Shown in pieces: positions 17,125-55,908 of a stretch of 64,000 nucleotides of DNA. This DNA is from Mustelus asterias (taxonomy: Eukaryota), in the NCBI RefSeq assembly GCF_964213995.1, contig NW_027591321.1, positions 1 to 64,000 of the forward strand, written 5' to 3'. Below the pieces are notes generated by a model that did not search any database, had not been told where the DNA came from, and worked only from the letters and a program-made list of their open reading frames with translations. Position 1 is the first letter of the stretch, and each line of letters begins with the position of its first letter. Made by a program: the position numbers and the translations under genes.

Positions 17125-17194
17125 CCTCAGAGGAAGCCAAAACAGAAGAAGCGTTTAGCCAGCACCCCGACTAAAAACAAAGCGTCTGACAAAG
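17125..17194 (+). CDS. CCDC61: CCDC61 exon: PQRKPKQKKRLASTPTKNKASDK
   Basis: tctctcccag acceptor, G|GTAAGC donor; 70 nt gives phase 0 to 1 as required. Confidence 0.8.
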
Positions 17195-18784: not shown

Positions 18785-18943
18785 ATACCCCTCAGAGGGA
18801 ACAAGGGGTTGTTGTCAGCTGTGCCGATCTGGTGCAGAGCAGGAGAGGAGAGAAGGTATTCATGTGTTTAGTGCAACTCTGATAGCAAATTGGATTTCCA
18901 AATGATCTAAAAATGCACGACAAACTTTCTTCCCTCTCTCCAG

Positions 18944-19038
18944 AAAATTACTTGGACTCGTGTGACCTTTCCGAAATCGATGCCAGGCTCAACGCGTTGC
19001 AGGAATACATGGAGAAGCTTGGCGCCCGGGCCGAGTGA
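18944..19038 (+). CDS. CCDC61: CCDC61 last coding exon: ENYLDSCDLSEIDARLNALQEYMEKLGARAE*
   Basis: C-terminal EIDARL.ALQEYM motif; ctccag acceptor; TGA at 19036-19038. Confidence 0.95.
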
Positions 19039-28315: not shown

Positions 28316-28641
28316 CTATTTCGAGGCCTCCGGGCGCGAGTGAATGAGACGATTGTTCTCTCGCACTCGAGCGTCGAGTTCCTCAGCAGTCAAGGAGAGG
28401 TGGGCGACCTGCTCCTGCAGGTTCTGCAGTGTGCTGGTCAGCTCCTCCTCCTTCCGCGTGGCGTTGGACGACTGCCGCATGTACTCGGCCAGGATACAAA
28501 CCCCACCGATGAAGAAGACAAACGCCTCTCCCAGGAGTTCCGCACCCAGATCCGCCGCCACCTCCTCGCTCAAGGGCTGTACCTGACCACTCCGGAATCC
28601 CATCATCCTCATTTTTGTCTTCATTTCGATCCAGTGGTATA
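28316..28641 (-). CDS. OPA3: OPA3 exon 2: [15 protein letters not shown]...[11 protein letters not shown]...*; spliced protein 155 aa
   Basis: ctctctcag acceptor; OPA3 motifs YHW.EM.TKMR.MGF and LGAELLGE; TAG at 28316-28318. Confidence 0.96.
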
Positions 28642-28944
28642 CTGAGAGAGGAGGAACACTCGGTCAGGTCAGAATGAGCTACGATAGGATCGCAGTCCCT
28701 GTCCCGCTGTCTATTACAGGCATTCTGTCAAACTCAAAACCTTCAGAACCCAGAAGGCCAAGTATTCAACTCCTCCCCTCCGCCCACTCACTGCTACACC
28801 CTTTTGCCCCCGACCCTCTCACCCATCCCCCTGCCGCACTCACCCCAACCCACCTCTTCCCACTGCGTCCCTCATCCCCCTCCCCACCGACCCTTCATCC
28901 ATTCCCCTGCACGCCCCCACCCCCCGTCCCGTACTCACTTTGCA

Positions 28945-29560
28945 CGCGCCCCCCCCGCCCCCCTCGTCCTTCGCCCCCCCCCCCGCCCTTCACCACCCCC
29001 CGGCCCCCTCGTCCTTCACCCCCCCGTCCTTCACCCCCCCGTCCTTCACCCCCCCGTCCTTCACCCCCCCGTCCTTCACCCCCCCACCCTTCACGTCCTT
29101 TACCCCCCCACCCTTCACGTCCTTTACCCCCCCACCCTTCACGTCCTTTACCCCCCCACCCCCCTCATCCTTCCCTGCCCCCCCACCCCCCTCGTCCTTC
29201 CCTGCCCCCCCACCCCCCTCGTCCTTCCCTGCCCCCCCACCCCCCTCGTCCTTCCCTGCCCCCCCACCCCCCTCGTCCTTCACTGCCCCCCTCGTCCTTC
29301 ACCCCCCTGCCCCCCGTCACCCCCCCGACCCCCGTCACCCCCCCCGTCACCCCCCCCGACCCCCGTCACCCCCCCCACCCCCGTCACCCCCCCCACCCCC
29401 GTCACACCCCCCACCCCCGTCACACCCCCCGACCCCCGTCACATCCCCCCCGACCCCCGTCACATCCCCCCCGACCCCCGTCACATCCCCCCCGACCCCC
29501 GTCATCCCCCCCGACCCCCGTCACCCCCCCCGACCCCCGATCCACCCACATCCTCGCCCC
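28945..29560. repeat. C-rich compound minisatellite in the OPA3 intron
   Basis: Successive units CCCCCCGTCCTTCAC, 24-bp CCCCCCACCCCCCTCGTCCTTCCCTG-like, and CCCCCCGACCCCCGTCAC. Confidence 0.95.
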
Positions 29561-29829
29561 ATCCCCTCGACCTTCACCCAGAGGGTGGTGAATGTGTGGA
29601 ATTCACTCCCACAGAAAGTAGTTGAGGCCAAAACTTTGAGAGATTTTAGGAAGAAATTAGATGTCGCTCTGGGGGTTAAAGGGATTTGGGGGGAAGGGAG
29701 GGGATCAGGATATTGAATTTGATGATTAGCCAATGATCAGAATGAATGGCAGAGCAGCTGGAGGGGCTGAATGGCCTCCTCCTGCTATCCCGTGTGTTTT
29801 AATTGGGTTTTTTCTCAAAGTGACTTTAA

Positions 29830-30230
29830 CCCCAGGCCCCGCCCCCACGCTCCTGTCCATCATCCCGAACCACCGCCTGATTGGCTAACCCTCTGCCGCC
29901 CCCGCTCTCTATTGGCTGACCGGGCTGTCACTCAGCCGGCCTGGCCCCGCCCCCTCGCGGCCTAGTCGCTTCAGGCTCCGCGGCCTCTCCCGCTCCCCCC
30001 GCCCCCGGGACTGACTCACTCACTCTGCGCGGGCGGCAGGCAGATGTAGCGCTTGAAGAACTGGCTCCGGCGGGCGTTTGCCTTGATGGAGTTGGCGAGG
30101 GGGCGGCTGACCTGCCGCACTCCCAACATCAACAGCTTGGCGATGGGGAAGGCGCCGACCACCATAGCGGCCGCTGCGTCACTTCCGGCAGCCAGGACAC
30201 CGCCCACCTGATGACGTCACCGGGACCGCC
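29830..30230 (-). promoter_or_regulatory. OPA3 CpG island/promoter: ETS/GABP site (ACTTCCGG 30181-30188), full CRE (TGACGTCA 30212-30219), GC boxes, two CCAAT boxes in intron 1
   Basis: Motifs read directly; CpG-dense; surrounds the start codon. Confidence 0.7.
30024..30165 (-). CDS. OPA3: OPA3 exon 1 (mitochondrial protein): [25 protein letters not shown]...YICLPPAQ
   Basis: Close to vertebrate OPA3 N-terminus; 142 coding nt then GTGAGT donor; lies in a CpG island. Confidence 0.96.
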
Positions 30231-32235: not shown

Positions 32236-33950
32236 GGTCACTCTCGTGACTAGAAGCAAAGGGAGCGAGTATGTAGACGACCTCATAAATTGACCACTGA
32301 AAGTGGTTAATTATTAAACAGTTCTGAATGGATCCAATGCAGAGAGCTATCATTATTAGCAGTGCTATCTTGAAGAGACCAAACACTGGATAATGTAGGC
32401 AGTGGGTGAATGATATCAGGCTAATTTAATCATAGAATTCCACTGATGCTGCAACAAGGTAACTAAGGTGAGGGTCAGTGGCTAGTTGCTCTTCTCAGTG
32501 CATAGAATCACTACAGTGCAGAAAGAGGCCATTCGGCCCATCGAGTCAACACCGGCCACAATCCCACCCAGGCCCTATCCCCGTAACCCCACATAGTTAC
32601 CCTGACACAAAGATGCAATTTAGCATGGCCAATCCACCTAACCCGCACATCCTTGGACACTAAGGGGCAATTTAGCATGGCCAATCCACCTAACCCGCAC
32701 ATCTTTGGACGCTAAGGGGCAATTTAGCATGGCCAATCCACCTAACCGGACCTCTTTGGACACGGGGCGGCACGGTAGCACAGTGGTTAGCACTGCTGCT
32801 TCACAGCTCCAGGGTCCTGGGTTCGATTCCCGGCTCGGGTCACTGTCTGTGTGGAGTTTGCACATTCTCCTCGTGTCTGCGTGGGTTTCCTCCGGGTGCT
32901 CCGGTTTCCTCCCACAGTCCAAAGATGTGCGGGTTAGGTTGATTGGCCAGGTTAAAAATTGCCCCTTAGAGTCCTGGGATGCGTGGATTAGTGGGTAAAT
33001 ATGTGGGGGTAGGGCCTGAGTGGAATTGTGGTCGGTGCAGACTCGATGGGCCGAATGGCCTCCTTCTGTACTGTAGGGTTTCTATGATTTCTAAGGGGCA
33101 ATTTAACATGGCCAGTCCACCTAATCGGCACATCTTTAGACACTAAGATGCAATTTAGCCTGACCAATCCACCTAACCCGCACATCTTTGGACACTAAGG
33201 GACAATTTAGTATGGCCAATCCACCTAACCTGCACATCTTTGGACACAAAGGGGCAATTTAGCATGGCCAATCCACCCAACCAGCACGTCTTTCAGACTG
33301 TGGAAGGAAACAGGAGCACCCGGAGGAAACCCACGCAGACACGGGGAGAACGTGCAGACTCCACACAGACAGTGACCCAAGCCGGGAATCGAACCCGGGT
33401 CCCTGGCGCTGTGAGGCCTCAGTGCTAACCCACTGTGCCACTGCGTTTCTGACATTACAACTGCAGCTACACGTAGCTGTGAGGTGCTTTGGGGTGTCCT
33501 GTGGTTGTGGCAGGTGCTACATTAATGCACGTCTTTTTTTCTCGACAGTATGGGGATTGCAGGCTTTGCCCCCGGGGAGGGAGAGGCCGTGGCGGGAATA
33601 TTTGGACATCGTGGGTGGAATTGTCTGAGCAGATAGCCCAGGGGCAATTTTAATTCACCTTCGATAGGCCGGCTTTCTGAGGCTAATCCCTCTCCTGAGC
33701 TGTGTTGGCAGAGGATTGGTTTGTGATGAGGGAATCTCTCTCTCCCTCTCTCTCTTTCTCTCTCTCTCTTTCTCTCCCTCTCTCCCTCTGTCTGTGGGAC
33801 AACCCACAGAGGCAACGATTAACTGGTCAGTTGGTATTTTTCACCCTGTCCAGTTCCATTGAGAGTATCAACTCTCAGCTCCAGCAGAGGAAAGTGTCCT
33901 GAAAATCCCACGACTGCAGCTAAACTCCAAAGGATTGAAGGAGAGACAGA

Positions 33951-34056
33951 GGCCGGAATTTTACCGGCACGCCCGCCCCGATTCCGGGGGCGGGCGAGGT
34001 TCGGTGAACGGCGTTCTCCGTGGACCTCGGGCGGACGCGCCAGTAAAATTATGCCC
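33951..34056. mobile_element. Short MITE-like element (related fragment at about 61344-61462)
   Basis: Imperfect terminal inverted repeats GGCCGGAATTTTAC / GTAAAATTATGCCC. Confidence 0.55.
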
Positions 34057-34065
34057 AGAGTGTGT

Positions 34066-34802
34066 GGGAGAGATGGAGAAAGGGAGACAGAGAGAGGCAG
34101 AGAAAGAGGGTGAGAGAGAGAGACAGAGAGATGGAGGTGAGAGGGACAGGGAGAGAGAAAGAGGGAGACAGGGAGAGTGAGAGAAAGGGAGAGAGAAAGA
34201 GAAGGAGGTGAGAGAGAAAGAGGGAGACGGAAGGAGAGTTGGAGGTGAGAGAGGGAGTGTGAAAGAGGGAGACAGAGAGAGGAAAAGAAAGAGGGTGTGA
34301 GTGAGATAGAGATGGAGGTGAGAGGGACAGGGAGGGAGAAAGATGGAGACAGAGGAAGAGGGAGAGAAAGAAGGTGAAAGAGAAAGAGGGAGACAGGGAA
34401 AGATGGAGGTGAGAGAGACAGGGAGGGAGAGAGTGAGAGAGAGGGTAACAGAGAGGGAGATAGATGTGAGAGAGACGGAGAGAGGGAGTGTGAAAAAGGG
34501 AGGCAGAAGGAGAGATGGAGGTGAGAGAGATGGAGAGAGGGAGTGTGAAAGAGGGAGACAGAAGGAGAGATGGAGGTGAGAGAGACGGAGAGAGGGATGT
34601 GAAAGAGGGAGACAGAGAGAGAGAGATGGAGGTGAGAGACGGAGAGAGGGAGTGTGAAAGAGGGAGACAGAAGGAGAGATGGAGGTGAGAGAGACGGAGA
34701 GAGGGATGTGAAAGAGGGAGACAGAGAGAGAGAGATGGAGGTGAGAGAGATGGAGAGAGGGATGTGAAAGAGGGAGACAGAGAGAGAGAGAGAGAGACAG
34801 GG
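34066..34802. repeat. GA-rich polypurine repeat upstream of the SLC30-like gene
   Basis: Recurring GAGATGGAGGTGAGAGAGA and GTGAAAGAGGGAGACAGA units. Confidence 0.92.
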
Positions 34803-35140
34803 AGCAAATGAAACAAATCAAATCTTGGAATGAAGATGGAACGCAGTAAACCGGCCCATCCAGTGAATTTAATCAGCTTAGCGATAAGATTGTTTCTAAC
34901 TTGGCAAAGTTCGGTCAGAGTAAGTGTCTTTGTCTGGGAAAATAACGTCTTTTTTTAAGAATTGAGAAAAAGATCACATTGAAACAAAACTCAGGGACTT
35001 TGCGAAGTCTTTCTGATTGGCTCAGAGTTTGCTGACAGCGGTTAGTGTTGGGTTGAGCCGAGGGAGGGGGGGGTCACAGATTGTTAGATTCTGTCGCTAT
35101 TTGGAGCAGGAGGCAGAGGGGCTGAGGTTTGGGGGGGGTC

Positions 35141-35633
35141 ATGGCCGCCTGTGGGGTCAACGCCGCTCGCTGGCTCTGGATATTGCTGCTGTCCGTCTCT
35201 GCGCTGCTGGGGCTGATCTTTAGCCAACTCAGTGACTCCCTCACCCTGCTCCTCGACTCCTTCCACTGCCTCCCGGTGCTCTTCGAGCTGGCGATGCCCC
35301 CCTTGGCCGACTGGCTGGCCCGCCGCCCCGCCCCCAGCTCGCACACCTTCGCCTGGGAGCGGCTGGCACCGGTGGGGGTGCTGGTAGCGGACGTGCTGTC
35401 GCTCTCGCTCTGCTGTTCGGTTAGCGTGGCCGCAATGGCGCGTCTGCTGGCTCCCCACCCCTTCCACCGGCCCGTCTTGCCCATCGCCGCCGGAACGGCT
35501 GGGATCTTCCTCAACCTGGGCGTCCACTTGTGGCTTCGCTCCGTGGGGAATGGCCGGAACTCCAGCCCGAGGCCAGATTCCGGACAGGATCAGCCGGACA
35601 CCAGCGCAGAAAATCCACAACCCAAGGACAAAG
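35141..35633 (+). CDS. SLC30A1/ZnT1-like CDF family protein, exon 1 (TM1-4), divergent
   Basis: Collinear with ZnT1 N-terminus (DSFH, TFAW.R, PH...P, G..G...N); good Kozak gtcATGG; G|GTAAGC donor, phase 1. Confidence 0.85.
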
Positions 35634-37115
35634 GTAAGCGGTGTAGACATCTCTGCGATTAGTTACTGAGTAACTCTGTCCAACTGCAAAGTGACGCCTT
35701 TAACCCCAAATCCCTTATCAAGCTGTCAGAAATCCACCCCGGGAGAGAACTCAAGCTTATTTATCTCAGAATCATCGAATCTCGACAGTGCAGAAGGAGG
35801 CCATTCAGCCCATCGAGTCTTGCACCAACCACAATCCCACCCCAGGCCCTATCCCCCTAACCTCACATATTTACCCTGCGAATCCCCCTGACACTATGGG
35901 GCAATTTAGCACGGCCAATCCACCTAACCTGCACGGTGGCACAGTGGTTAGCACTGCTGCCTCACAGCGCCAGGGACCCGGGTTCAATTCCCGACTTGGG
36001 TCACTGTCTGTGTGGAGTCTGCACGTTCTCCCTGACTCAAGAACAGCTTCTTCCCTGCTGCTGTCAGACTTTTGAATGGACCTACCTCGCACTAAGCTGA
36101 TCTTTCTCTACACCCTAGCTATGACTGTAAAGCTACATTCTGCCTTTCCTTCTCTATGAACGGTATGCTTTGTATGTACAGCGCGCAAGAAACAATACTT
36201 TTCATTGTAATACATGTGACAATAATAACTCAAATCAAAACAAATGTTTCTATGAGTAAATAGGGAGAAAGCGGTTCTGATGGGAGAAGGGCCGATAACG
36301 AGAGGGTCCCACATTTCTTTAAAAGTGGCAAAAGTATCAGGGCGGGACATGAAGAGAATTTGATTTTCTCTGAGTGAGCTGTTGTGATCTGGAAGGCACT
36401 GCCTGAAAGGGTGGTGGAAACAGATTCAATAATATCTTTCAGAAAGAAATTGGGGACGGCACGGCGGCACAGTGGTTAGCACTGCTGCCTCATAGCGCCA
36501 GGGTCCCGGGTTCGATTCCCGGCTTGGGTCACTGTCTGTGTGGAGTCTGCACATTCTCCCCGTGTCTGTGTGGGTTTCCTCCGGTTTCCTCCGAAAGACG
36601 CGCTGGTTAGGGTGCATTGACCCAAACAGGCGCCGGAGTGTGGCGACTAGGGGAATTTCACAGTAACTTCATTGCGGTGTTAATGTAAGCCTTACTTGTG
36701 ACACTAATAAATAAACTTTTTAAAACCTTTAAATTGGATAAATTCTTGAAAGAGAAAATATGCACGGCTATGGGGAAAGAGTGGGACTAATTGGATAGCC
36801 CCCTCAAAGAGCTGGTACAGGCATGTTGGGCTGAATGGTCTCTTACAGTGCTTGCTCATTCGGTGACTGGCGTGCTGTGGATTGACAACCAGTTGTCCAG
36901 AGGCATACCACAAGGGCGGCACGGTGGCACGGTGGCACGGTGGTTAGCACTGCTGCCTCACAGCGCTAGGGACCCGGGTTCAATTCTGGTCTCGGGTGAC
37001 TGTCTGTGCGGAGTCTGCACGTTCTCCCCGTATCTGCGTGGGTTTCCTCCCACAGTCCGAAGATGTGCAAGTTGGGTTGATTGGCCATGCGATAGCCCCC
37101 TCAAAGAGCTGGTCC

Positions 37116-37495
37116 AATTGCCCCTTAGTATCCAAAGATGTGCAGGTTAGGTGGATTGGCCGTGCTAAATTGCCCCTTAGTGTCCAAAGATGTGCAGGTT
37201 AGGTGGATTGGCCATGCTAAATTGCCCCTTAGTGTCCAAAGATGTGCAGGTTAGGTGGATTGGCCATGCTAAATTGCCCCTTAGTGTCCAAAGATGTGCA
37301 GGTTAGGTGGATTGGCCGTGCTAAATTGCCCCTTAGTGTCCAAAGATGTGCAGGTTAGGTGGATTGGCCATGCTAAATTGCCCCTTAGTGTCCAAAGATG
37401 TGCAGGTTAGGTGGATTGGCCGTGCTAAATTGCCCCTTAGTGTCCAAAGATGTGCAGGTTAGGTGGATTGGCCATGCTAAATTGCCCCTTAGTGT
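37116..37495 (+). repeat. 7 tandem copies of a 52-bp internal HE1 SINE segment
   Basis: TCCAAAGATG recurs every 52 nt from 37131 to 37443. Confidence 0.93.
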
Positions 37496-37614
37496 CAGGG
37501 GTAAATATGTGGGGTTACGGGAATAGGGCCTGGGTGGGATTGTGGTCGGTGCAGACTCGATGGGCCGAATTGCCTCCTTCTGCACTGTAGGGGTTCATTG
37601 CTGTGTCCCTTATT

Positions 37615-38825
37615 GTTTGTTAACATAAGTGATATAGATGTTAATATAGGGGGATGACACCAAGATTGGTAGGAAGGTGAATGGTTGAAAAGGTTGTAAG
37701 TTACAGGGAGATGTAGCTGGGTTGGTCAGATGGTCAGAGCAGTGGCAGATGGTATTTAACCCTGATAAGTGCGAGGTGACGCACTTTGGAAGAAGTAACA
37801 AGACAAGGGAGTATCTAATGAATGGCAGGACACTGGGAAGCTCAAAGGAAAAGATGGATCTAAGATAAAGTTTATTTATTGTCACAAGTAAGGCTTACAT
37901 TAACACTGCAATGAAGTTACTGTGAAATTCCCCTGGTCACCCACACTCTGGTGCCTGTTTGGATAAATGCATCTAACCAGCACGTCTTTCAGAGGAAACC
38001 GGAGCACCCGGAGGAAACCCACGCAGACATGGGGAGAATGTGCAGACTCCACACAGACAGTGACCCAAGCCGGGAATTGAACCCGGGACCCTGGCGCTGT
38101 GAAGAAGCAGTGCTAACCACCGTGCTATCGTGCCTAATTATTCACAGAGTCCTGAAGTTGGAAGATCGGGTTAATAGGATAGTTAAGAAGGCATGAGGAA
38201 CACTTGCTTTTCTCAGTCGTGGCAAAGAGTATAAGAGTAAGGAGTTAATGTTGGAGCTGTGCAGGGTGTTGATTAGACCACAGCTGGAGTACAGTGTGCA
38301 GTTCTGGTCACCTCACTACAGGAAGGATGTGATTGCACGAGAGGAGGCACAGAGGAGATTCACCAGGATGTTGCCTGGGACGGAGCGTTTGAGCTATAAG
38401 GAGAGGCTGGATAGGCTGGGATTGTTTTCTCTGGAGCAGAGAAGGCTGAGGGGGGAACATGATTGAGGTGTATAAGATTATGAGGGATAGGGACAGGGTG
38501 TGTAGGGAGCGGCTGTTCCCCATGGTTGAGGGGGCAATCACGAGGGGGCAGAGTTTTAGGGAAAGGGGCAGGAGATTCAGAGGGGAATTTGAGAAAACAT
38601 TTTTTCACTCAGAGAGAGGTGGGAATCGGGAATGCGCTGCCTGGGAAGGTAGTGGAGGCTGAAAACCTCACAACCTTTAAACAGTATTTGGATGAGCACT
38701 TGGAACATCCTAACATTCGCGGATATGGGACAAGTGCAGGAAAATGGGACTGGCTCACATATAGTGGTAGTTATTATCGGTGATGGGCTGAACGGCCTCT
38801 GTCTGCACTGTAGGGATTCTATGAT
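37615..38825 (+). mobile_element. CR1 LINE fragment (RT end to 3' tail) with nested SINE 37865-38132
   Basis: DDTKIG, WQM.FN.DKCEV.HFG, RPQLEYSVQFWSP motifs. Confidence 0.88.
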
Positions 38826-40772
38826 TCAATGACACCATGGGGTGGCACAGTGGTTAGCACTGTTGCCTCGCAGTGCCAGGGACCCGGGTTCGATTCTGGC
38901 CTCGGGTCACTGTCTGTGCGGAGTCTGCACATTCTCCCCGTGTCTGCGTGGGTTTCCTCCGGGTTTTCCCCCCACAGTCCAAAGATGTGCGGGTTAGGTG
39001 GATTGTCCGTGCTAAATTGTCCCTGAGGGTCAGGGGGATTAACAGGGCAAATACTTGGGGTTATGGGGATAAGGTAGGGATGCTCTGCCGGAGAGTCTGT
39101 GTAGACACAATGGGCCGAATGGCCTCCCTCTGTACTGTAGGGATTCTATGATTCTACTCTGAGTTTCTCATTTTGTTTTAAATTGCACCACTGTCTGTGG
39201 ACACTAGATGGCAGACTTTACTGCAAATTCCACACAAGCTGTAACTTTGATTTGATTTATTATTGTCACATGTGTTAACATACAGTGAAGAATGTTGTTT
39301 CTTGCGTACTATACAGACAAAGCATACTGTTCATAGAGAAGGAAAGGAGAGAGTGCAGAATGTAGTGTTACAGTCATAGCTAGGGTGTAGAGAAAGATCA
39401 ACTTAATGCAAGGTAGGTCCATTCAAATGTCTGACAGCAGCAGGGAAGAAGCTGTTCTTGAGTCGGTCGGTACGTGACCTCAGACTTTTGTATCTTTTTC
39501 CCGACGGAAGAAGGTGGAAGAGAGAATGTCCCGGGGTGCGTGGGGTCCTTGATTATGCTGGCTGCTTTGCCGAGGCAGCGGGAAGTGTAGACAGAGTCAA
39601 TGGATGGGAGGCTGGTTTGCGTGATGGATTGGGCTACATTCACAACCTTTTGTAGTTTCTTGCGGAGCCTTACCAAGCTGTGATACGTCCAGAAAGGATG
39701 GTCTCTGAGGGTGGCACAGTGGTTAGCACTGCTGCCTCACAGCGCCAGGGACCCGGGTTCGATTCCCGGCCTTGGGTCACTGTCTGTGTGGAGTCTGCAC
39801 GTTCTCCCCGTGTCTGCGTGGGTTTCCTCTGGGTGCTCCAGTTTCCTCCCACAGTCTGAAAGACGTGCTGGTTAGGGTGCATTGGCCGTGCTAAATTCTC
39901 CCTCAGTGTACCCGAACAGGCGCCGGAGTGTGGCGACTAGGGGATTTTCACAGTAACTTCATTGCGGTGTTAATGTAAGCCTAGTTGTGACTAATAAATA
40001 ACTTTAACTTTACTTTTCCGGGGACCGTATCCCTCTATTCCCATCCTATTCATGTACTTGTCCAGACGCCCCTCAAAATTCACTATCGTATCTGCTTCCA
40101 CTACCTCCCCCAGCGAGTTCCAGGCACCCACCACCCTCTGTGTAAAAAACCTGCCTCGTCCATCTCCTTTGAACCTTGCCCCTCGCACCTTAAACCTGTG
40201 CCCCCCCTAGTAATTGACTCTTTCCACCCTGGGAAAAAGCTTCTGACTATCCACTTCATGAAGAGTCACAGCCTCGACTTTCTCAGGAGGCTAGGGAAAT
40301 TCAGCACGTCCGTTACGCCTCTCACCAACTAACTGTTCGGGTCAATGCACCCTAACCAGCACGTCTTTCAGACTGTGGGAGGAAACCGGAGCACCCGGAG
40401 GAAACCCACGCAGACACGGGGAGAACGTGCAGACTCCACACAGACAGTGACCCAAGGCCGGGAATCGAACCTGGGTCCCTGGCACTGTGAGGCAGCAGTG
40501 CTAACCCACTGTGCCACCCTATGGCAAGGGTTTTAGTTCAAGTTGGGCAGCATGGTCGGTGCAGGCTTGGAGGGCCGAAGGGCCTGTTCCTGTACTGTAA
40601 TTTTCTTTGCGCTTTGTTCTCTCTCTCTCTCTCTCTCTCTGTGCCCTATTCATTTACAGGATACAGGCCCTTTGCCTTAGTGTAGCGCCTACAATCCACT
40701 GCAGTTTAACATTCAGACAGAATAACGAAACGTCTACAATGTGTTTTAATGGCCACCGTTTGCTTCTATTAG

Positions 40773-41416
40773 ATGTCACTGGATGCAGGAGAGAAGCAGA
40801 AGCGATCAGAGGCACGGCAGACCGGGGCGCCCACGGCAAGAGGGCGGCGGTAACCAGCGGGTGGGAGATCCTCGTCTGCCTCACCGGCGTGGCTCAGTCG
40901 GTGTTGAATTCGGTGCTGGCCCTTGTCGTTGGTCTACTCCACAGCCTCCCAGTGCCAACAACCGGCAGCTGGCACAGAGACAGCCTCCCCTACCTGGACC
41001 CCGGGTTCTCGCTGCTCACCGCCGTGGTGCTGGTAACCGCAGTGGCCCCTCGGCTGAAGGTGTCGGTTCTGCTGCTGTTGGAGTGCGTTCCGGCGCAGCT
41101 AGACTTGCGGCGTTTGAGCGACCGGCTGACGGCAGTGAGCGGCGTGGTGGCGGTGCACGAACTCCACGTCTGGCGCCTCTCGGCTCGCCGGGTCGTGGCC
41201 AGTGCCCACGTGCAGTGCCGCAGCCTGGCCGGCTTTGCCCGTCTAGCTGGGGATCTGCGGCGGGTATTCGACAGCGAGGGGATTCACTCGGTCACCCTCC
41301 AACCCGAGGTCATCAACCCCGCTGTCGCCGGGGGCAACCCCACAACCTCCTGCCAGCTCGCCTGTGGCCCCGACTGCGCCACGAAACTGTGCTGCGATTG
41401 GCCGGAGGGAGCGTAG
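40773..41416 (+). CDS. SLC30A1/ZnT1-like protein, exon 2 (TM5-6 + cytosolic domain); spliced protein 378 aa
   Basis: YLDP, VHELHVW.L...VASAHV, GIHSVTLQPE and C.LAC...C..K.CC are ZnT1/ZnT10 hallmarks; ctattag acceptor in phase 1; TAG at 41414-41416. Confidence 0.9.
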
Positions 41417-46376: not shown

Positions 46377-46664
46377 ATGCCCCTCCACAAGTACCCGCCG
46401 CGGATCTGGCAAGCCCTGCGACTGAGGCAGGGAATCTACGCTCGCTTACCAGCTCACTACCTCCGCTCCCTCGGAGAGACCCAGGAGCCAGCCCCCGTCC
46501 ACTTCAAACCCCACGGGGTTAAGTACAAACGGAACCCGCGCACAGGGCAACCGGAACGCGTGCAGGACGTGCCCATTCCCATCTACTACCCGCCGGAGTC
46601 GCAGAGCGGGCTGTGGGGCGGGGAGGGTTACGTACAAGGATTCAGATACGCCAACAATGACAAG
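46377..46664 (+). CDS. MRPL28: MRPL28 (mitochondrial ribosomal protein bL28m) first coding exon
   Basis: MPLHKYPP..., [24 protein letters not shown]; acceptor AG ends 46363; donor AAG|GTAACG; 288 nt. Confidence 0.97.
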
Positions 46665-47588
46665 GTAACGGAGTTGCGGTACGACCTGCGGGGGTGACTA
46701 ATTCCGGCATTCATTTTTCCTCCTTCCTATTCGAGAGGCATCTTGAAATGGGGGGGGGGGAGGGGGGGAATGTGGGCACAGCCTGTGAGGCTTCTGGACT
46801 GATGCCCAGGTGAATGATTTGTGACCTTTGGGTTCAACTCACCAAAGGCATCTGCAGCGATCTCAACTCGATGGATAAATCATAGAATCCCTACAGTGCA
46901 GAAAGAGGCCATTCGGCCCATCGAGTCTGCACCGACCACAATCCCACCCTATCCACATATCTCTACATATTTACCCACTAACCCCTCGAACCTATGCATC
47001 CCGGGACACTCGGGGGCAATTTAGCACGGCCAATCAACCTCGCCCGCACATCTTTCGGACTGTGGGAGGGAACCGGAGCACCCGGAGGAAACCCACGCAG
47101 ACACGGGGAGAATGTGCAAACTCCGCACAGACAGTGACCCGAGCCGGGATTCGAACCCAGGTCCCTGGAGCTGTGAAGCAGCAGTGCTAACCACTGTGCC
47201 ACCGTGCCACCCTATCTAAAATTATTAAGCTAGCCTCTGGTGACCATGGCAACCATCATCGATTGTTAAAAACTGGCTCACTGATGCTGGCCTTGCCAGC
47301 GACACCCACATCCCCGTTTAAGAATTAAAAGCAAAAACAGAAAATTGGCATCGCTTAAGCCAACGATTGTGTGTGTGTGTGTGTGTGTGTCCCAGTTAAA
47401 GTGTCTCGCACGGCCATTTCAGAGGGCAGTTGAGAGTCAACCATTGCTGTGGGCTCTGGAGTCACCTGAAGACCAGACCGGGTAAGGACAGCAGATTTCC
47501 TTCCCTAAAGGGACATTAGTGAACCAGGTAGGTTTTTCCGACAATTGATCCCTTTAGCCCCAAGAGCTATGTCTAATTAAATAGCTAG

Positions 47589-47793
47589 AGTTTTAACAAC
47601 ACCAGGTTAAAGTCCAACAGGTTTATTTGGTAGCAAATGCCATTAGCTTTCGGAGCGCTGCTCCTTCGTCAGAAGGAGCAGCACTCCGAAAGCTAATGGC
47701 ATTTGCTACCAAATAAACCTGTTGGACTTTAACCTGGTGTTGTTAAAACTCTTACTGTATTCACCCCAGTCCAACGCCAGCATCTCCACATCA
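47589..47793. mobile_element. Penelope-like palindromic insert, family A
   Basis: Near-perfect inverted arms; 15-bp TSD TAATTAAATAGCTAG (47574-47588, 47794-47808). Confidence 0.8.
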
Positions 47794-49144
47794 TAATTAA
47801 ATAGCTAGCAGGTGGCACAATAGTTCACACTGCTGCTTCACAGCTCCAGGGACCCGGGTTCGATTCCCGGCTTGGGTCACTGTCTGTGCAGAGTCTGCAC
47901 ATTCTCCCCCATGTCTGTGTGGGTTTCCTCCGGGTGCTCCGGTTTCCTCCCACACTCCAAAGATGTGCGGGTCAGATGCATTGGCCATGCTAAATTGCCC
48001 TTTCGTGTCCCGGGATGCATAGGTTAGAACGATTAGTGGGGTAAATATGTGGGGTTACGGGGATAGGGCCTGGAAGGGGTTGTGGTCGGTGCAGACTGGA
48101 TGGGCCGAATGGCCTCCTTCTGCACCTGTAGGGATTCTGCGGTAAGCCTACTTGTGAAACTAATAAATAAGCTTAATTTCTCCTTGAAATCAGACCTGGT
48201 CACCTTCACTGAGATGGGTTTTCGACTACAGATGTTCATAGAAATCATAGAAACCGTACAGGTGCAGAAGGAGGCCATTTGGCCCATCGAGTCTGCACCG
48301 ACCACAATCCCAACCAGGCCCTACCCCCACATATTTACCCGCTAATCCCTCTAACCTACGCATCCCAGGACTCTAAGGGGCAATTTTTAACCTGGCCAAT
48401 CAACCTAACCCGCACATCTTTGGACTGTGGGAGGAAACCGGAGCACCCGGAGAAAACCCACGCAGACACGGGGAGAACGTGCAAACTCCACACAGACAGT
48501 GACCCAAGCCGGGAATCGAACCCGGGACCCTGGAGCTGTGAAGCAGCAATGCTAACCACTGCGCTACCGTGCCGTTTTTCCGACACTCCGTTTCCGTTTA
48601 CCGTGTTGTTCGTTGAGTTTAAATTCCCCCAGCTGCCGTGGTGGGATTTGAACCCGTTTCCCTGAAGAGCATCATCCTGGGGTCTCTGTATTACTAGTCC
48701 AGTGACATTGCCCCCAAACTATGTCTCCTTCACTTTGTCGACACTGAGGGAGAGATTATTGTCACCGCACCAGTTCACCAGATTCTCTACCTCATTCCTG
48801 TAACTCCGTCTCGTCATTGTTTGAGATCCGACCCACTACGGTGGTGTCGTCAGCAAACTTGAAAATGGAGTTGTAGGCAAATGTGGCCACACAGTGATAG
48901 GTGGATAAGGAGTATAAGAGGGGGCTGAGGTGGAGAAGATGAGCGGGGGGAGGGGGGGGTGGCGCAGAGGATTCCAGATTCCAGAGTTTATGGGCTGCCA
49001 AGACGGATGGGAGGGGTGGGGTTCCACAGTTCGATGACCGGCAGGGGGGGGAGCGATGGAAATCGGGTGGTGTGCAGTAGGCCTGAATTAGGTAGGGTGT
49101 GAATTGGTTAAGGTACATTTGTGTGTGCGGCTCACTCGCTGCAC

Positions 49145-50467
49145 CGTCAGACTGTCCCGGCTGGGAGCAGCGTCAGACTGTCCCGGCTGGGGGCAGCGTC
49201 AGACTGTCCCGGCTGGGAGCGGTGTCAGACTGTCCCGGCTGGGAGCGGCGTCAGACTGTCCCGGCTGGGGGGCAGCGTCAGACTGTCCCGGCTGGGAGCA
49301 GCGTCAGACTGTCCCGGCTGGGGGCAGCGTCAGACTGTCCCGGCTGGGAGCAGCGTCAGACTGTCCCGGCTGGGGGGCAGCGTCAGACTGTCCCGGCTGG
49401 GGGGCAGCGTCAGACTGTCCCGGCTGGGGGGCAGCGTCAGACTGTCCCGGCTGGGGGCAGCGTCAGACTGTCCCGGCTGGGGGGCAGCGTCAGACTGTCC
49501 CGGCTGGGGGCAGCGTCAGACTGTCCCGGCTGGGGGGCAGCGTCAGACTGTCCCGGCTGGGAGCAGCGTCAGACTGTCCCGGCTGGGGGCGGCGTCAGAC
49601 TGTCCCGGCTGGGGGCAGCGTCAGACTGTCCCGGCTGGGAGCAGCGTCAGACTGTCCCGGCTGGGTGCGGCGTCAGACTGTCCCGGCTGGGTGCGGCGTC
49701 AGACTGTCCCGGCTGGGGGGCAGCGTCAGACTGTCCCGGCTGGGGGCAGCGTCAGACTGTCCCGGCTGGGGGCGGTGTCAGACTGTCCCGGCTGGGTGCG
49801 GCGTCAGACTGTCCCGGCTGGGGGGCAGCGTCAGACTGTCCCGGCTGGGGGCAGCGTCAGACTGTCCCGGCTGGGGGGCAGCGTCAGACTGTCCCGGCTG
49901 GGGGCAGCGTCAGACTGTCCCGGCTGGGGGGCAGCGTCAGACTGTCCCGGCTGGGGGCAGCGTCAGACTGTCCCGGCTGGGAGCAGCGTCAGACTGTCCC
50001 GGCTGGGAGCGGCGTCAGACTGTCCCGGCTGGGGGCAGCGTCAGACTGTCCCGGCTGGGGGCAGCGTCAGACTGTCCCGGCTGGGGGCAGCGTCAGACTG
50101 TCCCGGCTGGGGGCGGTGTCAGACTGTCCCGGCTGGGGGCAGCGTCAGACTGTCCCGGCTGGGAGCAGCGTCAGACTGTCCCGGCTGGGGGCGGTGTCAG
50201 ACTGTCCCGGCTGGGGGCAGCGTCAGACTGTCCCGGCTGGGAGCAGCGTCAGACTGTCCCGGCTGGGGGGCAGCGTCAGACTGTCCCGGCTGGGGGCGGT
50301 GTCAGACTGTCCCGGCTGGGGGCAGCGTCAGACTGTCCCGGCTGGGAGCGGCGTCAGACTGTCCCGGCTGGGGGCAGCGTCAGACTGTCCCGGCTGGGGG
50401 GCAGCGTCAGACTGTCCCGGCTGGGGGCAGCGTCAGACTGTCCCGGCTGGGAGCAGCGTCAGACTGT
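49145..50467. repeat. 23-24 bp GC-rich minisatellite (GCAGCGTCAGACTGTCCCGGCTGGG), roughly 55 copies, MRPL28 intron
   Basis: Direct tandem repeats. Confidence 0.97.
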
Positions 50468-50499
50468 AACGGCCTGTTCTCTGTTTGCCTCCTCTGCAG

Positions 50500-50652
50500 C
50501 TCTCCACACGGCTGAGGAAGACGTGGAAACCGCAGTTGTTTGTGCGAGAGCTTTACAGCGAAATCCTGGACAAAACCTTCACCATCCAGGTGACCATGCG
50601 GACTCTGGACTTGGTGGACGCTTGCTACGGTTTTGACTTCTACATCTTGAAG
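50500..50652 (+). CDS. MRPL28: MRPL28 exon: [23 protein letters not shown]...GFDFYILK
   Basis: L28 family motif; ctgcag acceptor, AAG|GTTAGG donor; 153 nt. Confidence 0.96.
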
Positions 50653-51157
50653 GTTAGGGCTTCTTGGATTGATGGGAGTTTGGTCAGGTGGCTGTTCTCT
50701 CTTTCCCTTCTCGAGGCTCAGAACTAAGGAAGTCGGGCGGTGGTTTGTGGGTGTTGGGGGGGGGGGGGGGTGTGTGTGGGGTGGGGGGGTGGTGGGGTGG
50801 TGGGGGGGGGGGGGTTGGGGGGAGAGAGAGAGACAGTGAGACCGACATCATCATTCAATTCCCCAGCACTGAGGACACTTTGCTGAAAGATCACACTCAC
50901 TGCCTCCCATTCCAACCCCCTCCCTGTGGAAATAGACAGAACAAACCCTTTAGTAATAATTTGCCCCTGCATAATGACTTTGAGGCAGTCACAGGCGCAA
51001 GGCATGTTTGCAGCAATGCCCTCACTCATCTTTCTGTTTCGAGTGTGGGTCTGTTTGCCGCTCTGAGTGGTCCCTTTAAGATTACCGCACTACCTCACAT
51101 CTTAAAAGGATTGTTTGTGGTACATATGACCTGTTCAACCGGACGGGACAGGACGGG

Positions 51158-51622
51158 CACTGACTGACTGACGGATACTGACTGACTGACGGATACTGAC
51201 TGACTGACGGATACTGACTGACTGACGGATACTGACTGACTGACGGATACTGACTGACTGACGGATACTGACTGACTGACGGATACTGACTGACTGACGG
51301 ACACTGACTGACTGACGGACACTGACTGACTGACGGATACTGACTGACTGACGGATACTGACTGACTGACGGACACTGACTGACTGACGGACACTGACTG
51401 ACTGACGGATACTGACTGACTGACGGATACTGACTGACTGACGGATACTGACTGACTGACGGATACTGACTGACTGACGGACACTGACTGACTGACGGAT
51501 ACTGACTGACTGACGGACACTGACTGACTGACGGACACTGACTGACTGACGGACACTGACTGACTGACGGACACTGACTGACTGACGGACACTGACTGAC
51601 TGACGGATACTGACTGACTGAC
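51158..51622. repeat. 18-bp minisatellite (ACTGACTGACTGACGGAY), about 26 copies
   Basis: Direct tandem repeats. Confidence 0.97.
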
Positions 51623-52149
51623 TACTGTCGCATGCCGCGAGTTGTTAGGGTCTGGAACGCACTGCCTGCAAGTGGTGGAGGCAGGTTCAACCAAGGCAGT
51701 TAAAAGGGCATTGGACATAAACAATGTGCAGGGGTCCGGGGAAAAGGCAGGGGAATGGCACTAAGTCACGATGCTCCCATTGGGGAGACCCAATGGGCCG
51801 AATGGCCTCCTGTACCGTGATAATTCTGTTTTCCTGTGAAGTTTTATAAAGTAGGGAATCGGGCTGTCTGGTAGTCTTATCGATCACGGAATGGTGCCGT
51901 TCCCCCTCAGTTCCAACCCACATTTACCTTTGTGTTGTTACGGTGAATGATAGCGGCAATGGGGAGGGGGGGGGGTGGGATTCTGGGATTTGAGAGACAG
52001 TGGGACCACTGGACTATCGGATTGGTAAATTTTAAGGAATGTCTCAAAGGAGCAGAGAGAGACTCAGAGATTTAGGGAGGAAATTAACCTCCTTTTTGCT
52101 CTTGTCTCTGACCTCGAACGATTGGTTGGAAGATCCATTACTGTCTACA

Positions 52150-52680
52150 CTTCTGGTCACCCGATTATAGAAAGGATATTATTAAACTAGAAAGAGTGCA
52201 GAAAAGATTTACTAGGATGCTACCAGGACTTGATGGATTAAGTTATAAGGAGAGGCTGGACAGACTGGGACTTTTTTCTCTGGAGCGTAGGAGGCTGAGG
52301 GGTGATCTTATAGAGGTCTATAAAATAATGAGGGGCATAGACAAGGTAGATAGTCAATATCTTTTCCCAAAGGGAGGGGAGTCTAAAACTAGAGGGCATA
52401 GGTTTAAGGTGAGAGGGGAGAGATACAAAGGTGTCCAGAGGGGCAATTTTTTCACACAGAGGGTGGTGAGTGTCTGGAACGAGCTGCCAGAGGTAGTAGT
52501 AGAGGCGGGTACAATTTTGTCTTTTAAAAAGCATTTAGAGTTACATGGGTAAGATGGGTAGAGAGGGATATGGGCCAAATGCGGGTAATTGGGACTAGCT
52601 TAGGGGTTTAAAAAAAGGGCGGCATGGACAAGTTGGGCCGAAGGGCCTGTTTCCATGCTGTAAACCTCTATGACTCTATA
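52150..52680 (+). mobile_element. CR1 LINE 3' fragment (close relatives at about 45966-46220 and 59448-59565)
   Basis: 118-aa open ORF2 C-terminus; 3' UTR shared among the three copies. Confidence 0.9.
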
Positions 52681-52940
52681 ACAGTTGTAGCTGAGGTATA
52701 AATATTAGTGGCAGGACACAGAGGATTTATTGTGTCCTTGTTTCTCAGCTAGTGACCAGGGAATCTTTTACTCCCACTCAATCGAGCAGATGTTATCCCC
52801 ACAGTGCGGCGCTCCCTCAGTACTGCGTCCAGAGTGTCTGCACGTACATCGGAATGCTCTGGGATTATTGAATGAACCTGACTGCCCACTGGAGCTTGTT
52901 TTTAATTAATTATTTTTTTTTGACACCGATCGTTCTCCAG

Positions 52941-53075
52941 ACTCCCAAGGTGGACCTGAATTCAAAGCTGGGAGTGGATCTGAAGCGTGCAATGCTGCTG
53001 AGACTCGCTCGCAAGGACACTGAGCTTTACCCCGAGGATGCAGCAAAACGGGAACGCATCTACGAGAAGTATAAG
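52941..53075 (+). CDS. MRPL28: MRPL28 exon: [23 protein letters not shown]...IYEKYK
   Basis: ctccag acceptor, AAG|GTACGG donor; 135 nt. Confidence 0.96.
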
Positions 53076-53830
53076 GTACGGTTACCCAGACTCAGGATTG
53101 AGATAGCAGCCGCTAGCCTTAAAACGAGGGGATCCTTCCGGGATCAGTCGAGTGCAGACTGAAGTCATTCTCCTTGGAGCAGAGAGGAATGACGGGGGAG
53201 CTGCGGATTGGGAGATGTTGGACATTTAAAGGTGGGAACAGGAGGAGGCTGTTCAGCCCCTCAAGCCTTCCCTTCCAGGGTCTGATGAGATCCAGACTGA
53301 TCTGGGGCGGCACAGTGGGTTAGCACTGCTGCCTCACAGCGCCAAGGACCCAGGTTCAATTCCGGCCTTGGGTCACTGTTTGTGTGGAGTCTGCACGTTC
53401 TCCCCGTGTCTGCGTGGGTTTCCTCCGGGTGCTCCGGTTTCCTCCCACACTCCAAAGATGTGCAGGTTAGGTGGATTGGTTATGGTAAATTGCTCCTTAG
53501 TCATAGAAAGAAATCATAGAAATCCTACAGTGCAGAAGGAGGCCATTTGGCCCATCGAGTCTGCACCGACCACAATCCCACCCAGGCCCTACCCCCACAT
53601 ATTTACCCGCTAATCCCTCTAACTACGCATCTCGGGGACAATTTGTAACCTGGCCAATCAATCTAACCTGCACATCTTTGGACACCAAGGGGCAATTTAG
53701 CATGGCCAATCCACCTAACCTGCACATCAGGTCACCTAATCATCACACAGATAGTGACCCGAGCCAGGAATCGAACCCGGGACCCTGGAGCTGTGAAGCA
53801 GCAGTGCTAACCACTGTGCTACCGTGCCGC

Positions 53831-54281
53831 CCTTGGTGTCCAAAGATGTGCAGGTTAGGTGGATTGGCCAAGGTAAATTGCCCCTTACTGTCCAAAGATG
53901 TGCGAGTTAGGTGGATTGGCCGTGCTAAATTGCTCCTTAGTGTCCAAAGATGGGCAGGTTAGGTGGATTGGCCATGCTAAATTGTCCCTTAGTGTCCAAA
54001 GATGTGCAGGTTAGGTGGATTGGCCGTGCTAAATTGCTCCTTAGTGTCCAAAGATGGGCAGGTTAGGTGGATTGGCCATGCTAAATTGCCCCTTGGTGTC
54101 CAAAGATGTGCAGGTTAGGTGGATTGGCCATGCTAAATTGCCCCTTGGTGTCCAAAGATGTGCAGGTTAGGTGGATTGGCCATGCTAAATTGCCCCTTAG
54201 TGTCCCGGGATGTGCAGGTTAGGTGGATTGGCCATGCTAAATTGCCCCTTAGTGTCCAAAGATGGGCAGGTTAGGTGGATT
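53831..54281 (+). repeat. About 8.5 tandem copies of the same 52-bp SINE segment
   Basis: Unit starts every 52 nt from 53839 to 54255. Confidence 0.93.
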
Positions 54282-54415
54282 AGCAGGGTAAATACTTGCG
54301 GTGGGCCTGGGTAAGATGCTCTTGTGGCGAGTTGGTGCAGACTCGATGGGCTGAATGGCCTCCTGTACTGTAGGGATTCGATGATAAACTGATGCGGAAT
54401 TTCTTTGTGTGGCAG

Positions 54416-54502
54416 GAGTTTGTCATTCCTGAAGAGGAGGCGGACTGGATCGGCCTGAGCCTCGAGGAAGCCGTGGAGAAACAGAGGCTGCTGGAGAAGC
54501 GG
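54416..54502 (+). CDS. MRPL28: MRPL28 exon: [29 protein letters not shown]
   Basis: ggcag acceptor, GTAAGG donor; 87 nt. Confidence 0.96.
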
Positions 54503-55908
54503 GTAAGGGTTAATATTCCAACTGAACCTTTAACCCCGCGCCGGCCACTGCCTCCTCTCTTCAATACTGTCGGCTGGAGGTTATATTCAAAGTGGGCTAT
54601 GGAGAAAGACCTGGTGAAAAGATTCAAATTGGCCAAAGAGCTGGCAGAGGCACGATGGGCAGAACGGCCTCCTGTGTGGGTTATTCTACGAACTTGATCA
54701 TTTATATACAGAATTATGAAAAGCAAGTTCAGGTCATTCTGACTGGATTAAGCATCAGCATTGTTTGATTCATTATTGTCACATGTATTAGCATACATGA
54801 AAAGTATTGTTTCTTGCGCGCTATTCAGCATACCGTTCATAGAGAAGGAAATGAGAGAGTGCAGAATGTAGTGTTACAGTCATAGCTAGGGTCTAGAGAA
54901 AGATCAACTTAGTGCGAGGTAGATCCATTCAAAAGTCTGACGGCAGCAGGGAAGAAGCTGTTCTTGAGTCGGTTGGTACGTGACCTCAGACTTTGATTTG
55001 ATTTATCATTGTCACATGTATTGGGATACAGTGAAAAGTATTGTTTCTTGCGCGCTTTACAGACAAAGTATACCGTTCATAGAGAAGGAAAGGAGAGAGT
55101 GCAGAATGTAGTGTTACAGTCATAGCTAGGGTGTAGAGCAAGATCAACTTAATATAAGGTAGGTCCATTCAAAAGTCTGATGGCAGCAGGGAAGAAGCTG
55201 TTCTTGAGTCTGTTTGCAAGTGATCTCAGACTTTTGTATCTTTTTCCCCAGGGTGGAAGAGTCAATTACTCGGGGGCACAGGTTTAAGGTGCGAGGGGCA
55301 AGGTTTAAAGGAGATGTACGAGGCAAGTTTTTTTACACAGAGAGTAGTGGGTCCCTGGAACTCGTTGCCGGGGGAGGTAGAGGAAGCAGATACGACAGTG
55401 ACTTTTAAGGGGCATCTGGACAAATACATGAATAGGATGGGAATAGAGGGATATGGTGCCCGGAAGGGTAGGGGGTTTTAGTTCAGTCGGGCAGCATGCA
55501 GGCTTGGAGGGCCAAAGGGCCTGTTCCTGTGCTGTAATTTTCTTTGTTCTTTTTCTTTGTTTTGTTCTTTGTTCCCAATGGAAGAGAGACTGTCCGGGGT
55601 GCGTGGGGTGCTTGATTATGCTGGCTGCTTTTCCCAAGGCAGCGTAAAGTGCAGTTGCCAGGAAAGGCTGTTTATTTGAAGTGTCAAACACAATATGTGA
55701 CAGTACTCCGAAGCATCCCAGTTTTTTTTAAGGATGTCGGAATGCCTTGTGTGCCCCTCCGCTGCCACTTAAAGCCCCCTTTGGGTGTCCAACTCGCTGC
55801 CGCTCGCTGACAAAAATAAAGCAATTGAACTCTAAGTGACCGAAATCGCTGGCGATGACAAGCATCGTGCGGGGCGAACTTAACATCTTTCTGAAAATTG
55901 TTTTTCAG

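Follow-up and report, generated by a model that had tools for sequence, protein, structure and literature searches.

A gene on the forward strand of a 64,000-nucleotide stretch of Mustelus asterias DNA (contig NW_027591321.1, positions 1 to 64,000; hereafter the window) encodes a complete 378-amino acid protein related to the zinc exporter ZnT1 (SLC30A1). Its membrane domain has lost the metal site needed for transport, while the zinc ligands of the cytosolic domain have been kept. Judged by its relatives, the gene belongs to a lineage of ZnT1 duplicates that predates the split between sharks and bony fish. The function proposed here, with a probability of about 0.4, is that of a non-transporting, zinc-binding partner subunit comparable to ZnT6, which would pair with ZnT1 or ZnT10. 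The window gene is an extra copy and not the canonical ZnT1 of this genome, which is found elsewhere with an intact HD-HD site (G000:C15, 42.57 Mb), together with a ZnT10-like gene (G000:C15, 35.3 Mb); both are possible partners of the protein. The gene is organized as follows:

35141..35633, forward strand: exon 1, with the start codon, transmembrane helices (TM) 1 to 4 and the first part of a His-poor cytosolic loop (amino acids 1-164 plus 1 nucleotide)
35634..40772, forward strand: intron, GT..AG, phase 1, within the TM4-TM5 loop
40773..41416, forward strand: exon 2, with the remainder of the loop, TM5, a short extracellular loop, TM6, the cytosolic domain, the Cys tail and the stop codon

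The initial annotation of this DNA, made from the letters alone, had described an intact two-exon reading frame with canonical splice sites, and this has been borne out, since the exons join at the GT..AG phase-1 intron to give 378 amino acids and a stop codon. An NCBI protein of M. asterias labelled SLC30A1-like (P0001) is identical to the window product over its full length (378 amino acids, 100%), and its model agrees with the splice junction 35633/40773. This junction was not seen in reads, where the one run guessed to be RNA yielded two short contigs that lie within exon 2 and do not extend to a splice site. The canonical Mustelus ZnT1 has the same layout, with an exon 1 of 622 nucleotides and a phase-1 intron in the same loop. 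Pfam analysis of the window protein revealed the Cation_efflux (E 4e-16) and ZT_dimer (E 3e-6) domains, both above their cut-offs, and the best match among solved structures was human ZnT1 (E 8e-30). An AlphaFold model (predicted local distance difference test score 75.4) contains six long helices, four of them in the part encoded by exon 1 (8-31, 34-60, 75-103 and 112-139), and TM5 is a single unbroken helix (191-222) with no Asp and with no His before residue 220. Foldseek matched the model to human ZnT1 with an E value of 2.9e-17, and in VIA-align ZnT10 (Z 23.4, root-mean-square deviation 3.4, 279 residues aligned) and ZnT1 (Z 22.6, 3.5, 288 residues) were tied. The structural modelling suggested by the initial annotation has thus returned the full CDF/SLC30 fold, a six-helix membrane domain with a metallochaperone-like cytosolic domain, closest to human ZnT1 and ZnT10.

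Residue positions in the lineage are given in human ZnT1 numbering unless a Mustelus codon is named. A gap-free, motif-anchored reading was possible for TM2 in 41 and for TM5 in 43 of the 45 lineage proteins counted, about 20 of which were placed by tree and the remainder assigned by motif and profile score. Other residue counts refer to an aligned set of 35 lineage proteins, with smaller denominators where a position is missing. Transport by CDF proteins requires an HxxxD motif in TM2 and another in TM5. The Mustelus protein has H-V and G-S at these places, and the HD-HD site is missing lineage-wide too. The four codons are those given by the initial annotation: His42 (CAC, 35264-66), Val46 (GTG, 35276-78), Gly203 (GGC, 40886-88) and Ser207 (TCG, 40898-900). 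The relevant positions of the membrane domain are these:

35210..35212, forward strand: TM1 Gly24, equivalent to Glu25 of the ZnT1 outer vestibule
35255..35278, forward strand: TM2 site, with Asp39 (D40, kept), His42 (H43, kept), Cys43 (M44) and Val46 (D47)
35285..35287, forward strand: Glu49, equivalent to A50 of ZnT1 and placed one turn of the helix further in than the lost Asp
35387..35392, forward strand: TM3 Ala83-Asp84, where the canonical Asn85 is lost (0/33 in the lineage) and Asp occupies the next position in 5/5 sharks
35513..35515, forward strand: Asn125, equivalent to the ZnT10 manganese ligand N127, kept in 30/33
40886..40912, forward strand: TM5 site, with Gly203 (H251), Gln206 (G254), Ser207 (D255) and Ser211 (S259, or S252 of ZnT10, kept)
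40997..40999, forward strand: Asp240, equivalent to D317 of the ZnT1 outer vestibule, kept in 35/35

Asp47 is found in none of 41 lineage members, 37 of which have Val or Ile, and His251 in none of 43; Asp255 is restricted to eight of 43, all of them cypriniform fishes, zebrafish included. From these columns, position 47, nearly fixed as Val or Ile, looks as if plugged, and position 251, with its varied residues, as if freed. The gene lies on a 95.5-kb scaffold and the TM5 region is difficult to align, and both circumstances would favor an artifact of assembly or alignment at the degenerate site. Nevertheless, this explanation is refuted, and its probability is close to zero. The TM5 codons are covered, with no differing letter, by contigs of three of four runs (two studies, one possibly the source sample), so that assembly errors in them are unlikely; five other shark proteins share the TM5 changes, and the gap-free reading gives the same register, with the modelled TM5 as one helix. 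Six variants were observed in read contigs (three silent and three replacement), five of them in contigs of low depth, too few to be of use.

Asp40 (31/32) and His43 (30/32) are kept in the lineage, and the kept membrane residues include those lining the outer cavity of ZnT1 (PMC11051671), the lost ones being those of the central site. The remaining lost membrane residues, by their place in the helices, would belong to the inner half. Glu78 is gone in 29 of 32 members. Among the further polar and acidic losses listed by the initial annotation, that of the TM1 Glu turned out to be peculiar to Mustelus (the residue is kept in four of the five sharks with an N-terminus and in 30/32 of the lineage), whereas that of the TM3 Glu99 holds in 5/5 sharks, yet Glu or Asp is present there in 23/33 of the lineage. 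New polar residues near the site in sharks (Asp84, Gln206 and an acidic residue at 49) had been overlooked by that annotation. Across the lineage, position 44 is Thr, Ser or Cys in 41/41 members, position 254 is Gln, Lys, His, Arg or Glu in 35/35 (Gln in 6/6 sharks) and position 50 is His, Asn, Asp or Glu in 26/41, being acidic in three of five sharks. From helical spacing, Glu49 is a possible substitute ligand. Judged from the aligned residues, the pore is remodelled in a lineage-consistent manner, beyond mere stripping.

The absence of a His-rich loop was confirmed (one His, compared with 9-10 in ZnT1). Another loss, which the initial annotation had missed, affects the Cys-rich extracellular loop of ZnT1 (45-51 amino acids, 5 Cys), reduced in sharks to 15-16 amino acids with 0-1 Cys (16 and 0 in Mustelus). 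As a separate observation, Heterodontus (P0004), coelacanth, paddlefish and teleost members (P0027 and P0171 among the labels) have in common a hydrophobic-Asn-Pro motif in the variable cytosolic loop. It is absent from the Mustelus protein and its intron, possibly reflecting a lost exon or binding motif, and a search of the intron 35634..40772 for a loop-insert exon of the Heterodontus type did not find one.

In contrast to the membrane site, the cytosolic domain and the ZnT1/10-type Cys cluster are as well conserved as had been claimed. The zinc ligands, located according to PMC11549101 and PMC11051671, and the Cys residues are the following:

41156..41308, forward strand: cytosolic zinc ligands His293, Glu294, His296, His310 and Glu343 (H370, E371, H373, H387 and E420)
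41351..41395, forward strand: C-terminal Cys cluster C358, C362, C366, C371 and C372 (C433-C447)

H370, H373, H387, E420 and each of the five Cys are present in 35/35 lineage proteins, the only exception among the ligands being E371 (30 Glu, 4 Asp, 1 His). The window protein thus carries the features of the ZnT1/ZnT10 subfamily (HELHxW motif, H387, E420 and five-Cys tail).

Orthologs 64-76% identical to the window protein were found in five other sharks, and relatives were named from coelacanth, lungfish, newt, axolotl, caecilian, bichir, paddlefish, sturgeon, bowfin and many teleosts (1.84 billion representatives plus two profile searches). No frog, amniote, ray or chimaera member was present among the named matches of these searches, two of which scored about 8,000 candidates and one the best 150 of 3,087. 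Database names for these proteins are inconsistent (ZnT1, ZnT10, ZnT6 or 'zinc/cadmium resistance protein'). In a tree built on 33 of 60 rows, 14 of these proteins form a single clade (support 100/100) nested with vertebrate ZnT1 at 100/99, a nesting recovered at 97/97 in a second tree. The clade lies apart from ZnT1 and includes a UniRef entry named 'Solute carrier family 30 member 1b' (Pygocentrus slc30a1b). The phylogeny and ortholog search proposed in the initial annotation therefore identify a lineage shared by sharks and bony vertebrates, a third ZnT1-type beside ZnT1 and ZnT10. Neither this wide distribution nor a probable zebrafish ortholog with an existing knockout had been recognized in that annotation. 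Approximately unbiased (AU) tests, which share the weaknesses of the tree model on long branches, rejected an origin by teleost duplication, with the b copies beside teleost ZnT1 (p-AU 1e-48, with a single partial teleost ZnT1 in the tree), a shark-only duplication (p-AU 5e-7 and 8e-6) and grouping with ZnT10 (p-AU 0.006). A quick-method tree was replaced by the 33-protein tree, the placement of a butterfly protein in it being attributed to long-branch pull.

On the stem of the lineage, the membrane domain accumulated 1.03 substitutions per site and the cytosolic domain 0.43, and the former value exceeded the latter in 196 of 200 resamples; along the path to bat ZnT1 the pattern is the opposite (membrane larger in only 12 of 200). 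Within sharks both domains are level (0.20 and 0.18 substitutions per site), and identities are 71-80% for TM1-4, 72-84% for the cytosolic domain and 37-55% for the loop. Counts of conserved columns kept (membrane 20/54, cytosolic 20/27, Fisher p 0.002) are inflated because the comparison set was chosen by site motifs, and branch lengths have been used instead. These rates point to a single functional shift with conservation thereafter instead of decay, in agreement with the earlier view that the losses are unlike neutral decay: the orthologs of the other sharks and of bony vertebrates are open proteins without HD-HD, so the possibility raised at that time that they keep the site does not hold, and the change in the membrane domain is concentrated on the stem. 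That the duplicate is decaying because selection on it has relaxed, and will end as a pseudogene, is very improbable. The long branches, the viability of slc30a1b-null zebrafish (PMC8706747), the lack of frog and amniote members among the named matches, the loss of E25 in Mustelus alone and, weakly, the upstream region without a metal-response core described below would be expected of it. Against it stand the uninterrupted protein recorded for 45 members of the lineage, sharks as well as teleosts, with invariant ligands, the conservation of the shark membrane and cytosolic domains overall (63-84% identical) compared with the loop, and a synthetic phenotype in zebrafish (PMC8706747). The open frame and the domains more conserved than the loop speak against the gene already being a pseudogene.

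The functional consequences may be judged from mutants of the human proteins. In ZnT1, zinc efflux is lost in the H43A/H251A, D47A/D255A and D47N/D255N mutants, transport is normal in the cytosolic-site mutant H370A/H387A, and E25, D40 and D317 are outer-vestibule residues that matter for transport (PMC11051671). Truncation of the ZnT1 cytosolic zinc sites lowers activity in cells (PMC11549101). ZnT10 binds manganese through D40, N127, D248 and S252, and its D47A and D248A/N mutants do not transport manganese (PMC12480533). The Mustelus protein fits neither functional pattern, lacking both the HD-HD site of ZnT1 and the equivalents of D47 and D248 of ZnT10. Because the human mutants of these same residues fail, it would be unable to carry zinc or manganese by the known route.

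The lineage is thus a mirror image of the ZnT1 mutant effects, in that the residues needed for transport are gone (D47 and H251 altogether, D255 outside the cypriniforms) and H370, H387, E420 and the five Cys are invariant. This mirror-image conservation, together with the precedent of ZnT6, is what suggests a partner subunit. ZnT6 lacks two ligands and acts as an auxiliary protomer paired through its cytosolic domain, and ZnT1 heterodimerizes with ZnT2, 3 and 4 upon co-expression (PMC7949119). A protein that has lost the central site and retained the cytosolic zinc ligands would not be a pump by itself; it could dimerize, by way of its cytosolic domain, with a transport-active protomer of ZnT1 or ZnT10, whose trafficking or activity might then be tuned by the zinc-binding subunit. 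Both the heterodimer and the regulatory role are suggested by analogy with ZnT6 only.

Genetic data bearing on this proposal come from zebrafish, which is reported to have two SLC30A1 genes (PMC4281218). The zebrafish member of the clade (Danio E7FCR4 / XP_009292164) is probably the product of slc30a1b, the gene that has been knocked out. This match is favored by the UniRef name and by length, the clade proteins of zebrafish and two other cyprinids having 462-482 amino acids and carp slc30a1b 482 (5 exons; PMC4281218). It is opposed by identity values, since slc30a1b is listed in the table of a review as sharing 54% of its residues with human ZnT1 (PMC3944790), and the values measured for the clade protein against a mammalian ZnT1 are 25% identity and 41% similarity. 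Both genes are co-expressed in the pharyngeal region, the gut and sox10+ cells, in keeping with a partnership. Single slc30a1a and slc30a1b mutants show no early phenotype, and fish without slc30a1b grow into healthy adults. In double mutants the pharyngeal arches are almost completely missing and zinc builds up in neural-crest cells, a phenotype attributed to zinc overload through Snai2-Jag1b. The available part of that work handles slc30a1b as an ordinary redundant zinc exporter and does not mention the lost site (PMC8706747). Should the match hold, ZnT1 is backed up by a protein that has neither D47 nor H251.

Several of these points weigh against a partner subunit. As double mutants are far worse than slc30a1a single mutants, slc30a1b is active without zygotic ZnT1a, which disfavors an obligate subunit of ZnT1 unless maternal ZnT1a or a ZnT10 partner takes part; moreover, slc30a1b single mutants reach adulthood in good health (PMC8706747). 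The conserved outer-vestibule residues E25, D40 and D317 and the new polar residues flanking the site would fit a working pore. The lower activity of truncated ZnT1 means that its cytosolic sites do not serve purely non-transport purposes (PMC11549101), and the extracellular Cys loop, which is part of the ZnT1 dimer interface, is missing here. The zebrafish genetics would more simply fit a remodelled carrier or a stand-alone scaffold or sensor. Together with the partner subunit, these are the three candidate mechanisms already put forward in the initial annotation.

The first of these, rather unlikely on the evidence as a whole, would be a homodimer moving zinc slowly, or another cation, through D40, H43, N127 and S259 plus new polar residues at 44, 50, 86 and 254. 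Three of the four manganese ligands of ZnT10 are kept (D40, N127 and S252), and the cypriniforms, zebrafish included, have all four and E25. ZnT10 itself is a precedent for a ZnT site moved off HD-HD, the polar substitutions at 44, 254 and 50 are lineage-wide, and among sharks the membrane domain is as conserved as the cytosolic one. Zinc accumulates in the double-mutant neural-crest cells, and simple redundancy is the plainest genetic reading (PMC8706747); in addition, the degenerate insect paralog ZnT77C is said to support zinc release (PMC5509326). However, D47 and D255/D248, which mutants of ZnT1 or ZnT10 have each shown to be required, are absent from the shark protein, as are E99 and, in Mustelus, E25. 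The residues at 50, 251 and 255 differ between clades, unlike a fixed new site. In the available sections on zinc content, double mutants are compared with 'control' embryos and not with slc30a1a singles (PMC8706747). Moreover, the zebrafish protein has one ligand more than that of sharks, to which its genetics may therefore not apply.

A stand-alone scaffold or zinc sensor, which is unlikely, would be a homodimer performing the non-transport tasks of ZnT1 (Raf-1 activation and inhibition of L-type calcium channels), switched either by zinc bound in the cytosolic domain or by a metal in the outer vestibule, which is retained. It explains how the loss of ZnT1a can be compensated with no transport involved, both Raf-1 and the beta subunit of the calcium channel are binding partners of ZnT1 (PMC7949119), and the kept residues are the cytosolic ligands and, in most members, those of the outer vestibule, the inner half of the path being lost. 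The ascription of the double-mutant phenotype to zinc overload through Snai2-Jag1b (PMC8706747) argues against it, as does the thinned outer acidic layer of sharks (E99 in 0/5, E25 lost in Mustelus). A broader proposal, quite unlikely, is that a zinc-sensing pseudo-transporter lineage arose from ZnT1 in jawed vertebrates and that its zebrafish member rescues the jaw arches of ZnT1a-null embryos without moving zinc. Part of the essential developmental role of ZnT1 would then be signalling through its cytosolic zinc sites and not export.

Comparison with known ZnT systems places the window protein closest to ZnT1, its best match by sequence and Foldseek, with which it shares tree nesting, the two-exon phase-1 layout, the cytosolic ligands and the Cys tail; it differs in lacking D47, H251, D255, N85, E78, the His-rich loop and the Cys-rich extracellular loop. 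Like the manganese exporter ZnT10, whose site is shifted, it has a short extracellular loop, no His loop and three of the four manganese ligands, but it has His instead of Asn at 43 and lacks D47 and D248. With teleost slc30a1b, zebrafish included, it shares the same 100/100 clade, the D-x-F-H-[TS]-L-x-[VI] motif in TM2, the loss of the TM5 His, the short extracellular loop, the absence of a His-rich loop and the invariant cytosolic ligands. The zebrafish protein has Asp255, E25 and E99 where Mustelus has Ser, Gly and Ala, and the carp gene has 5 exons instead of 2 (PMC4281218). ZnT6, the auxiliary protomer of ZnT5-ZnT6, resembles it in being conserved although its transport site is incomplete (PMC7949119, PMC5666860), a property that the window lineage has maintained under long-term conservation. 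Nevertheless, ZnT6 belongs to another subfamily, lacks two ligands and not three, and has a demonstrated partner, whereas that of the window protein is putative and the zebrafish mutants hint at a function even when zygotic ZnT1a is absent. Insect ZnT77C, a degenerate ZnT1-type protein said to support ZnT63C (PMC5509326), and degenerate nemertean ZnT1-like proteins have likewise retained H43 but not D47 and H251. The best tree places them outside the group of vertebrate ZnT1 proteins, which suggests separate origins; a common origin with the nemertean proteins was not rejected (p-AU 0.23).

It was already known that the gene is annotated in sharks and that transport-deficient ZnTs exist, and the gene has probably been named and knocked out in zebrafish. 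In the literature searched, which takes in a minority of the subscription papers, no statement was found that the slc30a1b lineage has lost its transport site or predates the split between sharks and bony fish. Zebrafish slc30a1b has been used as a redundant second ZnT1. If it belongs to this lineage, it buffers the loss of ZnT1 in the jaw arches with at least two of the four ligands missing (three in sharks), and either a ZnT exports zinc without an 'indispensable' site or ZnT1 has an essential non-transport role. The a/b pair would then not be a teleost duplication, and the family tree would have to be corrected. The question also bears on the purpose of the ZnT1 cytosolic zinc sites, a mutant of one of which transports normally in liposomes (PMC11051671), and on whether native ZnT heterodimers matter. 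The choice between transport and signalling can be tested now, since zebrafish mutant lines already exist.

The neighbors of the window gene are OPA3 and MRPL28 and not LPGAT1/NEK2/RD3, the block that marks the ZnT1 locus (PMC4281218). Other features of the window are the following:

1393-1875, 8308-8682 and 18886-19035 (span 1393-19035), forward strand: coiled-coil and Arg/Ser-rich exons, with generic coiled-coil matches only (Pfam, Atlas)
28319-30165, reverse strand: OPA3, two coding exons, start codon at 30165, head-to-head with the window gene and about 5 kb from it
46377-54694, forward strand: MRPL28, downstream; first coding exon matching bL28m (E 2e-47), likely later exons near 50470, 52872 and 54374
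49092-50633: GC-rich long tandem repeat with at least two open frames, apparently part of an intron of MRPL28

Human OPA3 lies on 19q13.3, a region paralogous to 1q32-41 with SLC30A1; this would fit an origin in the early vertebrate genome duplications. The coiled-coil exons may be CCDC61, for which Pfam and Atlas gave no confirmation. A crude codon scan of the 30 kb past the window found no further clear gene. Three putative cores of the metal-response element occur within 450 bp of the ZnT1 start (L007) and none in the 1.5 kb upstream of the window gene (33641-35140), the counts being small.

A second degenerate lineage derived from ZnT1 was found in electric ray, skates, sevengill shark and catshark (P0045, P0075, P0194, P0195 and P0220; support 100/100). 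It also lacks D40, yet it mostly retains the Cys-rich extracellular loop of ZnT1. This lineage and the window gene possibly descend from a common degenerate ancestor (78/82); a grouping of the shark members with this lineage alone was rejected (p-AU 3e-4). Its exon 1 is present in Mustelus (L005, G000:C4445:16547-17101, forward strand), near the end of a short contig and with an apparent frame break near the start, and its exon 2 was not found in the Mustelus genome. Further ZnT1-like proteins with incomplete sites occur in bichir (P0073) and arapaima (P0026), their placement being unsure, and others that keep H43 and lose D47 and H251 in insects (P0244, P0010), in ribbon worms (P0103, P0157) and in one unnamed source (P0134). 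Across these sequences, the loss of the site in ZnT1 duplicates seems to have recurred. Finally, P0023 is an unnamed 768-amino acid protein in which two complete ZnT1-like units, each with its site intact, are fused in tandem.

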